10,660 nt of DNA. Origin: a virus. The notes below the pieces were generated by a model that saw nothing but the letters and a program-made list of their open reading frames with translations, made no database searches and was not told where the DNA came from. A program made the position numbers and the translations under genes. Positions 239 through 2,204 of this stretch are shown one piece after another. The stretch lies in the IMG/VR virus record IMGVR_UViG_3300035698_019127. One strand, given 5' to 3'. The first letter of the stretch is position 1, and the number at the start of each line of letters is the position of its first letter.

Positions 239-1066
239 ATGACCCTCCGCACCTTCCTTGAGAAGATGGAAGATCCCCGCAAAGACGCTCTCCTTGCCAT
301 CTATGATCAGTATGCAGACCTGTTCCACTATGCATTAGGGTCTACCCACAACCATCAGGCGTGGCGTGGGGGTTATGCCGATCACATCTTGGAGTGTCTA
401 CGGATCAACTCCGTGACCTACGATGCTCTGGAGCAGATTCGATCTCTCCCGTTCACCAAAGACTCTGCAGCCATCTGCCTGTTCCTGCATGACATCGAGA
501 AGCCCTTCCGCTATGGCCCCGAGGACCACCCCGTGGCGAATCAGTGGCACCGTCAAGCCCAAGATTTGGCTGCTCGAACATTCCCAGACCATGATCGGGA
601 CCAAGCCAACTGGCGGGCATGGGAAGTGGTGAAGCAGAACATTCTCGAAGATTGGCGTGAAGCATTCGATATCAACCTGACAGAACCCGAAATGAACGCC
701 CTGCACTACACCCACGGGGAAGGTGATGCTCACCGCAAAGACGCTCGGGTGGCAGGACCCCTGGCTGCCCACGTTCACCACTGTGACAACACGTCTGCCC
801 GCATCTGGTTCGACAAAGGGGAAGGACTCAGCAAAAAGCCCCGCAGAGACAACGAAGACCTCGGGGATGTCTACTGCCTGATCCGGGATGGGTCAGAGCA
901 CTGGTACCTCTGCCCTGCCTCAAAACGAGAGGAGGGCAACACCGCCATGGCACTCATCGAACGCTTCTGGGAAAACCCAAAGGGGGAAGCACCGGATATC
1001 CCCGATTACATCCTTGCCATTGATGGCCCCCACAAGCTCACGTTCATGGATCCCAAGAATGTATAG
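239..1066 (+). CDS. HD-domain metal-dependent phosphohydrolase
   Basis: The H..H...HD signature is visible: STHNHQAWRGGYADHILECL followed by LFLHDIEKPF. The ORF track opens at 164, but ATG at 239 is preferred. It is preceded by GGAGAAG (about 223-229) and avoids a 70-nt overlap with the upstream CDS. Stop is TAG at 1064-1066. Confidence 0.65.
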   Translation: MTLRTFLEKMEDPRKDALLAIYDQYADLFHYALGSTHNHQAWRGGYADHILECLRINSVTYDALEQIRSLPFTKDSAAICLFLHDIEKPFRYGPEDHPVANQWHRQAQDLAARTFPDHDRDQANWRAWEVVKQNILEDWREAFDINLTEPEMNALHYTHGEGDAHRKDARVAGPLAAHVHHCDNTSARIWFDKGEGLSKKPRRDNEDLGDVYCLIRDGSEHWYLCPASKREEGNTAMALIERFWENPKGEAPDIPDYILAIDGPHKLTFMDPKNV

Positions 1067-1412
1067 GTACTCCCTCTTGCTTGCACTGGTGCTGTTCTTC
1101 GGCATGGGTTCTCTAGGCGGGAGCTACATCGCTTTCGGGGGCGGCCCCCTCTCCCCGACCGAATCCTATGGGTTCTGTGTGCTCCTGCTCACCGGCTTGT
1201 TCACAGGTGCAGGGTTCACCATCCTCGTTGATCGGGAAAAGCGGGCTGGGATGCAGGGGCTTGCCCAAATGCAGGACACTCCCAAAGAGGCCACCGGATC
1301 TCACCAGGAGGCCATGCTCAAGGCTGCCTGGAAGTCCGAGAGTGGGTTCGTCTCGGGTGAAGTGGACGACGAGGGCAACCTCACCATCACTGAGCAACCC
1401 CAAGAGACCTAG
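1059..1412 (+). CDS. Small membrane protein (117 aa) with two predicted TM helices and an acidic C-terminal tail
   Basis: ATG at 1059 overlaps the upstream stop (ATGTATAG). The N-terminal half is hydrophobic (LLLALVLFFGMGSLGG...FCVLLLTGLFTGAGFTILV). The C-terminal tail is charged (SGEVDDEGNLTITEQPQET). The ORF-track start at 888 lies inside the HD gene in another frame and is rejected. Confidence 0.5.
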   Translation: MYRYSLLLALVLFFGMGSLGGSYIAFGGGPLSPTESYGFCVLLLTGLFTGAGFTILVDREKRAGMQGLAQMQDTPKEATGSHQEAMLKAAWKSESGFVSGEVDDEGNLTITEQPQET

Positions 1413-1418
1413 GGTTCC

Positions 1419-1450
1419 AGGTTTCAACCCGTCCACTTCCGCGTAGTAGG
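1419..1450 (+). promoter_or_regulatory. Bipartite conserved intergenic motif, copy A: AGGTTTCAACC-N9-CCGCGTAGTAGG
   Basis: Begins 7 nt after the TAG stop of the membrane-protein gene. Ends 3 nt before GGAGG and the start of the M50 gene. An identical arrangement with the same spacing recurs at 8612-8643. Confidence 0.4.
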
Positions 1451-1451
1451 G

Positions 1452-2204
1452 GTGGAGGCACCCTTGCCTGAACGGACCGATGGCCTATACATTCTTCCCG
1501 ACAGGGATTGGTTCGACGTTCTGTTGCTGCTGATGATGTTGGGGCTTTTCGCGTGGTACCCCGCCACAATCACCATACTCATGCTGATCATAGCTTTACA
1601 CGAGCTGGGACACCTTTGCATGGGGAGAGTCCTGGGGGTGTATGCCACGAAGTGCAATGTGGGTGGTTCGCCCCCATTTCTCACGTATCAGAAGGGCAAG
1701 ACCTCCTACAGCCTAGGCTCAAACCCCTTGTCAGGGCTGACTGAATTCCCTGAATTTGACAAGACACCCCACATGTCCAGGATCCTGATCCTATTGGCAG
1801 GGTCCACGGTCAACCTCTTGTGTGGGGTAATCCTCTTGGGAATCCCCGCCACAGTGGAACTGGTCTCCGAGATCCCACACCTCCTGTGGCAAATGCTGTC
1901 TCTACAGCCGCCCCCAAAGCACATAGCAGATGCTCCCCTACTCACCAGACTAGGAACCCTTTCTGTTCTGCTCGGAGGTACAAACCTGCTCCCCATTCCG
2001 ATTCTCGATGGTGGAAACCTCTGGTTGACCGTTGGGGATGCAGTCTTCGGCAAGTTCTACCCCTCCGCCTGGAAAAAGCTTCAAAAGGGTGCCTTGCTGC
2101 TAGGCCTGGGTTGCCTTCTAGTGATCTTCTTCGCCATGTGTGTAGGAACCTGCAAACACGGTTGCTCCGCAAACCCTACAGAACAGGCAGACTCCGATGG
2201 CTAG
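1452..2204 (+). CDS. M50-family site-2 protease (intramembrane zinc metalloprotease) homolog
   Basis: HExxH sits in a hydrophobic segment (IALHELGHLCMG) and is followed by the S2P signature NLLPIPILDGGNLW, with multiple TM segments. Start is either GTG at 1452 or in-frame TTG at 1464, which follows GGAGG by 5 nt. Stop TAG at 2202-2204 overlaps the next ATG. Confidence 0.75.
   Translation: MEAPLPERTDGLYILPDRDWFDVLLLLMMLGLFAWYPATITILMLIIALHELGHLCMGRVLGVYATKCNVGGSPPFLTYQKGKTSYSLGSNPLSGLTEFPEFDKTPHMSRILILLAGSTVNLLCGVILLGIPATVELVSEIPHLLWQMLSLQPPPKHIADAPLLTRLGTLSVLLGGTNLLPIPILDGGNLWLTVGDAVFGKFYPSAWKKLQKGALLLGLGCLLVIFFAMCVGTCKHGCSANPTEQADSDG

Follow-up and report, generated by a model that had tools for sequence, protein, structure and literature searches.

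In bacteria, envelope-stress sigma factors, iron uptake, sporulation and virulence are under the control of site-2 proteases (S2Ps), as is the clearance of small toxic membrane proteins. Their substrates are generally single-span type II membrane proteins from which cleavage releases an N-terminal cytoplasmic domain, and RseP also degrades small membrane proteins (PMC10470546). In E. coli RseP, a tandem of PDZ domains is the proposed size-exclusion filter, and the gate of the enzyme consists of the PDZ domains, the PCT-H2 helix and transmembrane helix 4 (TM4), the last of these via D446 (PMC9401612). SpoIVFB is inhibited by BofA, a small protein with two transmembrane (TM) segments, one of which fills the active-site cleft of the protease (PMC9042235). 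We found no paper on a phage-encoded S2P, and a 2023 review of bacterial S2Ps does not mention phages. Here we analyse the DNA of the IMG/VR virus record IMGVR_UViG_3300035698_019127, a stretch of 10,660 nucleotides (nt) that is called the window below in its full length. The window encodes a protein of 246 amino acids (aa) (1464–2204, + strand) that, judged by its sequence, is a genuine RseP/RasP-type (group I) S2P homologue with all catalytic motif residues kept, and upstream of it a 117-aa membrane protein (1059–1412, + strand). An earlier note on this DNA had proposed that the two form a phage S2P/substrate pair. One half of this proposal stands, in that a genuine S2P homologue is present in phage-like DNA; the other half, coupling of the protease to its neighbour, does not, since a promoter-like spacer lies between the two genes. 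With a probability of roughly 0.55, we favour two separate genes, in which case the protease would act in trans and the neighbouring protein would be only a candidate client, either a substrate or a regulator.

The protease open reading frame (ORF) matches the Pfam family PF02163 (Peptidase_M50) with E=1.1e-25 and 90.7 bits against a cut-off of 27.2, covering profile positions 2–209 of 221. Both motifs from which the earlier note had recognised an M50 protease are confirmed, HELGH at 1599–1613 (aa 46–50) and NLLPIPILDGG at 1983–2015 (aa 174–184). In two alignments with distant homologues (A1 and A2), the zinc-binding and catalytic residues H46, E47 and H50 of the first motif are invariant, as are N174, P177 and the third zinc ligand D182 of the second. 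NCBIfam TIGR00054 gives a partial match (71.3 bits against an equivalog cut-off of 147.55) made up of two stretches that flank the missing PDZ region, and the sequence matches in the PDB are to RseP from Aquifex, Kangiella and E. coli. An AlphaFold2 (AF2) model of the protein, with a predicted local distance difference test score (pLDDT) of 74.9 and a predicted template modelling score (pTM) of 0.69, was compared with the PDB using Foldseek, and the nine best matches are all S2Ps, including RasP (9a6w), RseP orthologues (7w6y, 7w6x and 9j82), the Methanocaldococcus S2P MjS2P (3b4r) and SpoIVFB (8vjl). The model begins with an extra N-terminal helix (residues 15–26), followed by TM1 (32–56), inside which HELGH is located, a beta-hairpin (63–94) and TM2 (103–125); the C-terminal half comprises three short helices, TM3 (159–173) plus the LDG segment, and TM4 (202–234). 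As modelled, the beta-hairpin is the counterpart of the membrane-reentrant beta-sheet, and the S2P core fold of a helix bundle with a membrane-embedded beta-sheet is present. From the intact motifs together with the model, we infer that the protein has intramembrane proteolytic activity.

The elements that gate RseP could not be found in this protein. Between TM2 and TM3, a short linker replaces the PDZ tandem: about 210 alignment columns of the RseP homologues, which hold the tandem, are gapped at residues 127–130 of the protease, and Pfam detects no PDZ domain in it. The 'SGPxGI' stretch of the PCT-H2 'GPxGI' helix is also absent and corresponds to a 16-column gap relative to RseP homologues. 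Finally, the conserved aspartate of the TM4 'NDI' (EcRseP D446) aligns to a glycine, with 'NDI' standing opposite the 'VGT' of the sequence 'CVGTCKHGC'. Because the protease keeps the catalytic core without any of these three gate elements, it would be expected to need no prior site-1 cut, and both the alignments and the model point to a loss of gating. The protein would thus represent a new variant, minimal, viral and gate-less, of a well-known family. The Cys/His cluster CVGTCKHGC itself (nt 2136–2162, residues 225–233) takes the place of 'NDI' at that end of the last helix which faces the periplasm, and may form a disulfide or bind a metal.

Translation of the protease was assigned to TTG 1464, which is preceded at a distance of 5 nt by a GGAGG ribosome-binding site (1454–1458, + strand); the listed ORF begins at GTG 1452 and has 250 aa. 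We also considered ATG 1533 as the start, as most database matches align only from residue ~38–43 of the protease, and rejected it: this codon has no Shine-Dalgarno sequence, its use would remove a helix that is backed by the AF2 model and by a homologue (P0060), and TTG 1464 suits the leader pattern seen at RtcB and in metagenomes (see below). According to the earlier note, the small gene was translationally coupled to the protease gene. The layout contradicts this, since 39 nt separate the stop codon of the small ORF (1410–1412) from GTG 1452 and 51 nt separate it from the better start TTG 1464, the spacer reading GGTTCCAGGTTTCAACCCGTCCACTTCCGCGTAGTAGGGGTGGAGGCACCC, then TTG. Overlaps are found instead with the two outer neighbours. 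The ATG of the small ORF overlaps the stop of an upstream HD-like gene (ATGTATAG, 1059–1066), and the stop of the protease gene overlaps the ATG of an HNH endonuclease gene (ATGGCTAG, 2197–2204). The HD-like gene occupies 239–1066 on the + strand (275 aa from ATG 239; the listed ORF runs from TTG 164 and has 300 aa), and the HNH gene (PF01844) occupies 2197–2883, also on the + strand. These overlaps indicate that the small gene is translationally coupled to the HD-like gene and that the protease is in fact coupled to HNH.

The ORFs of the small protein and the protease share a reading frame, with a single TAG (1410–1412) and 17 sense codons between them. Recoding of TAG so as to fuse the two ORFs was rejected: TAG ends seven of the 11 genes in the window (TGA ends four and TAA none), a stop usage that points to the standard code, under which the conserved ORFs are also uninterrupted. 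As a speculative variant, occasional read-through of the TAG could yield a topologically consistent fusion of the small protein and the protease, in which the cytoplasmic tail of the former would lead into the extra N-terminal helix of the latter.

The spacer contains the bipartite motif that the earlier note had located between the two genes, and this observation was reproduced: the motif, GTTTCAACC-N10-CGCGTAGTAGG, is found at 1421–1450 on the + strand, directly 5' of the protease gene, and a second copy at 8614–8643 (+ strand) lies directly 5' of RtcB (8660–10063). Its hexamers, TTTCAA and TAGTAG, are separated by 16 nt, and the window holds two copies where none would be expected. RtcB, which starts at ATG 8660, is preceded not only by the motif but also by a leader like that of the protease gene (GAGGAG-ACACCC-ATG). 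A scan of JGI metagenomes returned seven exact matches to the motif pattern. Four of these are on contigs of 63–67% G+C (L152, L154, L155 and L157), in which an ATG follows 16–18 nt after the motif, with a GGAG-type site between, and the genes downstream are unrelated; across the window copies and these four contigs, the distance from motif to start codon is 13–18 nt. By comparison, 596 Gb of bacterial and archaeal genomes contain only two matches to the pattern. Given its position, the leader shared with RtcB and its recurrence in metagenomes, we take the motif to be a promoter-like element with a lineage-specific occurrence, probably a promoter of one particular phage lineage. The presence of one copy before each gene suggests that the protease and RtcB are co-regulated, and the protease appears to head its own expression unit. 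An ECF-sigma (extracytoplasmic function) promoter was rejected as an explanation of the motif. The ECF-sigma consensus has AAC and CGT spaced by 16–17 nt, and here the spacing of AAC...CGT is 13 nt.

The small ORF is a real coding gene by its sequence signals and encodes an orphan two-helix hairpin protein. Its coding potential is +0.36 bits per codon, against negative values in the other five frames, its synonymous-codon usage (0.29) is typical of the window, and an independent gene call on an ENA contig (L001, ERZ27315476; 527 bp, identical to window positions 939–1465) gave the same 117-aa product (P0015). The description of this product in the earlier note as a small two-TM protein with an acidic tail is also borne out. 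Hydropathy places two hydrophobic segments at about residues 4–26 and 37–57, and the 59-residue tail (59–117) contains 11 acidic and 6 basic residues. Single-sequence AF2 modelling (pLDDT 65) gave helices at 3–25, 33–72 and 82–91. Lysine and arginine number one at the N-terminus, none in the loop and three just after TM2, a distribution that predicts a hairpin with both termini in the cytoplasm (N-in/C-in), in which about four residues precede TM1. Both TM helices are Gly-rich, TM2 carries a G46xxxG50 motif, and helix-destabilising residues are frequent in each (G15, G17, S18, G20, G21 and S22 in TM1; G38, T45, G46, T49, G50 and G52 in TM2). A database search for homologues of the protein returned only the protein itself. 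Pfam, including BofA, gave no match even at E≤10, NCBIfam domains gave none, and a Foldseek comparison of the AF2 model with the PDB had no match below E=2. The only hit in the PHROG database was phrog_8218, a family of unknown function, at E=0.004.

If the two genes are indeed separate, the protease would be transcribed from its own lineage-specific promoter-like element at 1421–1450, in common with RtcB, and translated from TTG 1464 behind GGAGG, coupled to the downstream HNH gene. The enzyme would then insert into the inner membrane of the infected cell and, with no prior site-1 cut, cleave helix-destabilised TM segments in type II orientation. Its targets may be host proteins, such as anti-sigma factors or small membrane proteins, or else membrane proteins of the phage. 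The 117-aa hairpin protein would belong translationally to the HD-like gene and would be one candidate client among these, linked to the protease by adjacency only.

Further S2Ps were found in viral contigs, and their neighbours bear on this reading. When IMG/VR was scanned at the DNA level with a degenerate pattern for NLLPIPxLDGG, 51 loci were obtained, in 44 of which an intact short ORF contains both protease motifs; 42 of these 44 are PDZ-less proteins of 190–280 aa, and they fall into nine clusters. The window protease is 21–28% identical to these RseP-like viral S2Ps, the best match (L024, E=1e-14) being encoded beside portal and tail-fibre genes, and the phage neighbours of the group include genes for portal, tail fibre, terminase, DnaB and ribonucleotide reductase. 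A second scan of IMG/VR for the SpoIVFB-like motif NxxPxxPxDGG found 93 stretches with 77 short M50 ORFs in 22 clusters. These proteins are ~170–430 aa long, mostly 200–300, many are encoded on contigs of 200–600 kb (loci L059–L150; L057:5139-5762), and relatives occur in the huge-phage genomes LR756511 and LR745206 (595–635 kb). Short PDZ-less S2Ps thus recur as a class in viral contigs, as far as their sequences tell, and PHROGs has no family that matches them.

For the survey of viral neighbours, genes were called in a crude manner and TM segments by a Kyte-Doolittle threshold. As background, 13% of 402 closely spaced same-strand gene pairs from the first locus set had an upstream TM protein of ≤200 aa. 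In the RseP-like group, a small TM protein was encoded ≤3 nt upstream of the protease start, or overlapping it, in 4/7 scorable clusters. Neither the window nor one further cluster, truncated by the end of its contig, is included in this count. Compared with the background, the binomial probability is approximately p=0.008, a post hoc value from a small sample. The largest clade (cluster A, 31 loci) encodes a protease of ~267 aa, and 25 of the 31 loci have an upstream partner gene, which overlaps the protease start by 16–40 nt and encodes a single-span coiled-coil protein of 154–181 aa. Within the clade, identity falls to 46% for the protease and to 34% for the partner, and the case for a conserved partner in this clade is persuasive by itself. 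In ten cluster A loci (L010, L021, L023, L025, L026, L029, L031, L036, L041 and L052; e.g. L025:6931-9145), the partner gene directly follows a gene for a signal-anchored trypsin-like peptidase (PF13365). The cassette order is therefore trypsin-like peptidase, partner (with a weak Rz-like spanin match, phrog_739) and overlapping PDZ-less RseP-type protease of 266–272 aa, with DnaB and ribonucleotide reductase as neighbours, and from its gene content it looks like a complete phage-encoded module of site-1 protease, substrate and site-2 protease. In the SpoIVFB-like viral set, on the other hand, 5/40 scorable loci have a small TM neighbour, which equals the background rate. A general rule that a viral M50 gene follows a small TM gene was rejected on this ground. 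Since the enrichment is seen in the RseP-like set and not in the SpoIVFB-like set, partnering is a property of some viral RseP-like lineages.

Several of our observations weigh against the view that the two window genes are separate. The enrichment of upstream partners, together with the 25/31 loci of cluster A, argues that a dedicated partner is common in the RseP-like group, which could apply here as well. We found no terminator-like hairpin between the small ORF and the protease gene, so that co-transcription by read-through would be possible. The promoter function assigned to the bipartite motif derives from its position and recurrence only, and the activity and the loss of gating assigned to the protease derive from its sequence and model. 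The low codon adaptation of the protease (see below) may simply reflect low expression or the composition of a membrane protein.

Among the alternatives, the one that fares best is that the protease has its dedicated substrate in the 117-aa protein and that the two constitute a self-contained regulated-intramembrane-proteolysis module, in which cleavage alters the activity of the small protein. We consider this unlikely. TM2 and the tail could, for example, be set free once the protease had removed TM1, which is Gly-rich and in type II orientation. In favour of such a module, the genes are adjacent on the same strand without a terminator between them, and analogous small membrane proteins are encoded upstream in other viral RseP-like lineages. 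The 117-aa protein, however, is dissimilar in sequence to the partners in the other viral clusters, to which BLAST found no match, and the upstream enrichment is gone in the SpoIVFB-like viral set (5/40). The properties of the protein itself point in both directions. Both helices are rich in the helix-destabilising residues Gly, Ser and Thr; TM1 is predicted to run from N-in to out, the orientation that S2Ps cut, and small membrane proteins are among the molecules that RseP degrades (PMC10470546); a PDZ-less enzyme would moreover need no site-1 trimming of its substrate (PMC9401612). Yet the protein is predicted to be a hairpin and not the canonical single-span type II protein, and it has no N-terminal effector domain, so that canonical cleavage behind some four cytoplasmic residues would free essentially nothing into the cytoplasm; its acidic tail follows TM2, whose orientation is non-canonical. 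The lack of translational coupling and the promoter-like element between the genes also speak against a dedicated pair, the codon usage of the two ORFs differs, and in the collections searched the small protein has no homologue, and the protease no close one, that could show co-conservation. That the neighbouring small protein is a substrate is therefore a reasonable hypothesis, which the gene layout weakens.

A broader proposal is that phages, especially large ones, carry a hitherto unrecognised class of ungated PDZ-less S2Ps, each of which forms, together with a small membrane partner of its own, a self-contained switch of intramembrane proteolysis; to this we would give still less credence. 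Under it, the protease would clip TM1 of the 117-aa hairpin. What is left, a GxxxG protein with one span, would be able to oligomerise and could serve as a timer or trigger, by analogy with the loss of the inhibitory first helix of a pinholin. Host anti-sigma factors could be further targets of the protease, with no site-1 signal needed.

It is more doubtful again that the 117-aa protein regulates or inhibits the protease and would supply the missing gating in the manner of BofA or of SpoIVFA, whose gene lies upstream of spoIVFB. In size and two-helix topology, which suit a regulator as well as a substrate, the protein resembles BofA, and an external brake would make biological sense because the protease has lost all intrinsic gate elements. 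If the small protein is expressed from the preceding operon, it could also be present before the protease. The absence of a match to BofA or any other family at E≤10 and of any structural match stands against this, and the precedent comes from the SpoIVFB subgroup while the enzyme of the window is RseP/RasP-like.

The protease is isolated among databases. A word-index search of 5.8e9 proteins matched only RseP-like proteins, at 25–37% identity over one third of the query. Exhaustive phmmer against 1.84e9 representative proteins gave 5,440 M50 matches, the best at E=3.6e-16 and hence none at E≤1e-30, and in a cluster look-up the nearest short forms (219–242 aa) are metagenome singletons. Exact-protein look-ups with the protease and with RtcB found no match. 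GenBank records of isolate phages contain essentially no S2P, the matches there being partial host rseP genes in contaminated records. Three loci reached through homologues of the HD-like gene, on a 5-kb contig, a bacterial contig and a 224-kb marine contig, lack the pair. The 5-kb contig carries the closest HD-like homologue, which likewise has a long C-terminal extension (306 aa), and the 224-kb contig, which is phage-like, encodes a different, SpoIVFB-type M50 protein 2.3 kb from its HD-like homologue, with a cupin gene before it. The synonymous-codon score of the protease (0.02) is the lowest in the window, where the other genes score 0.12–0.37, HNH being second lowest at 0.12. Set beside the 0.29 of the small ORF, this fits, and hints at, different histories of the two genes.

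These data could also be taken to mean that the adjacency is coincidental and that the protease is a recent passenger, acquired with or beside the mobile HNH gene, with little or no role in infection, while the small protein has an unrelated membrane role such as a holin/pinholin-like function or superinfection exclusion. The two genes with the lowest codon scores, those of the protease and HNH, overlap each other, close relatives of the protease were found nowhere we searched, the nearest loci with the upstream HD-like gene lack it, and an upstream small TM protein would be met by chance in ~13% of closely spaced viral gene pairs. Class II holins have an N-in/C-in two-helix layout with GxxxG, similar to that of the 117-aa protein, whose predicted topology is compatible with a class II holin or pinholin; no lysis gene (endolysin or spanin) is present in the window, however, and the protein has no holin family match, phrog_8218 at E=0.004 being its sole hit. 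We regard the passenger explanation as the least probable: the catalytic and structural core residues are all intact, which argues for purifying selection on the protease, the good Shine-Dalgarno sequence and the motif common with RtcB make the gene look integrated into the phage programme, and short S2Ps recur in many independent viral lineages.

The ORFs of substantial size in the window are all on the + strand, co-directional and tightly packed. The HD-like protein matches phrog_5889 (1.4e-8) and has 180 homologues, mostly of ~190 aa, one of which carries the JGI name YhaM-like; an exact copy of the 275-aa protein (P0165) is encoded on a JGI contig. The same phage occurs in the JGI sample with P0165 and in ENA sample ERZ27315476. 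Downstream of the HNH gene, a tRNA-Met (CAT) at 2816–2892 covers the last 68 nt of the HNH ORF, so that either the two genes truly overlap or the C-terminus of HNH is an ORF-calling artefact caused by read-through. It is followed by a gene for an 851-aa major-vault-protein homologue (3136–5691, + strand), an RNA-ligase-like gene (5791–6402), a gene for a 457-aa protein and a divergent pyruvoyl arginine-decarboxylase-like gene (8035–8613), which brings the series to the second motif copy and RtcB. The HD/YhaM-like protein, the RNA ligase and RtcB, plus the tRNA, form a gene cluster of RNA-repair type, among which the arginine-decarboxylase-like gene, above the Pfam cut-off and far under the NCBIfam equivalog cut-offs, is also found. 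A second common 5' element, CTCACAGGAGA, occurs at 6427–6455 and 8014–8034, directly before the starts of the 457-aa and arginine-decarboxylase-like genes. It lies within short inverted repeats (GGGCCC...GGGCCC and GGTCTC...GAGACC), which, if they pair, would put the ribosome-binding site in a hairpin loop.

Several of these genes connect the window with large phages. The 457-aa protein matches phrog_29287 at 4e-117 and is 37–40% identical to proteins of the jumbo phages Atu_ph07 of Agrobacterium (490 kb) and SCTP-2 of Salicola (440 kb), and the RtcB, RNA ligase and HNH genes match phage families. The vault-protein homologue is 39–40% identical, over 82–93% of its length, to unannotated ORFs of uncultured phages of 462–735 kb (LR756500, LR756501 and LR756503). 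In huge phages with the vault-protein homologue, no other window gene is found up to 12 kb to either side of it. This protein, which may be the most unusual gene product of the window, is a homologue of the eukaryotic major vault protein with a Pfam MVP_shoulder domain (2e-25) and a sub-threshold Vault_3 repeat; it has no match among PHROG families, and a literature search found nothing on vault proteins in phages. No virion gene is present in the 10.6 kb of the window. Megablast of the window against 50,697 phage records found no close relative, nor did IMG/VR protein-pattern scans with the protease and with the vault-protein homologue, and an exact 31-mer of the window was met neither in the IMG/VR data searched nor in GTDB genomes. 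Contamination with host DNA was rejected in view of the PDZ-less enzyme, the co-directional genes and the neighbours with phage relatives. It is plausible, by this indirect route, that the window derives from DNA resembling that of a huge or jumbo uncultured phage.

Across ~120 viral contigs, many of them 200–600 kb in size, phages repeatedly carry short S2Ps without PDZ domains, and in the RseP-like forms the missing domains are those by which RseP is held back until the site-1 cut has been made. A phage in which such an enzyme is active could trigger or silence the membrane signalling of its host at will, or could use it to process phage membrane proteins. Short viral S2Ps could also serve as small models for S2P gating. 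We know of no report in the literature of this pattern, in which S2Ps that are predicted to be ungated recur in large phages and one clade combines a conserved partner with a candidate site-1 protease.

In comparison with known systems, the window protease is most like E. coli RseP and B. subtilis RasP, which are its best sequence and fold matches and share with it the order of TM1 with HExxH, a membrane-reentrant beta-sheet, TM2 with AGxxxN, TM3 with NxxPxPxLDGG, and TM4. It differs from them in having neither the PDZ tandem nor the PCT-H2 'GPxGI' helix nor the TM4 aspartate, in its extra N-terminal hydrophobic helix, in its length (246 aa as opposed to ~420–450 aa) and in its location in phage-like DNA without the usual cellular neighbours. 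With the M. jannaschii S2P (3b4r; Foldseek E=1e-3, TM-score ~0.5) it has in common that it is a small PDZ-less M50 protein, but strand order and helix count are different (PMC9401612), and the sequence similarity is less than that to RseP orthologues. The locus recalls SpoIVFB, an S2P controlled by small membrane proteins, its inhibitors BofA and SpoIVFA, of which the latter is encoded directly upstream; unlike SpoIVFB, the window protease is RseP-like and has no CBS domain, and the 117-aa protein has no detectable similarity to BofA. Finally, the locus resembles cluster A of IMG/VR, where a PDZ-less RseP-type protease in a phage context likewise has a gene for a small membrane protein directly upstream. 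The neighbour in the window, however, is a two-span orphan without sequence relationship to the single-span partner of cluster A, and a promoter-like spacer stands between its gene and that of the protease, whereas in cluster A the two genes overlap.

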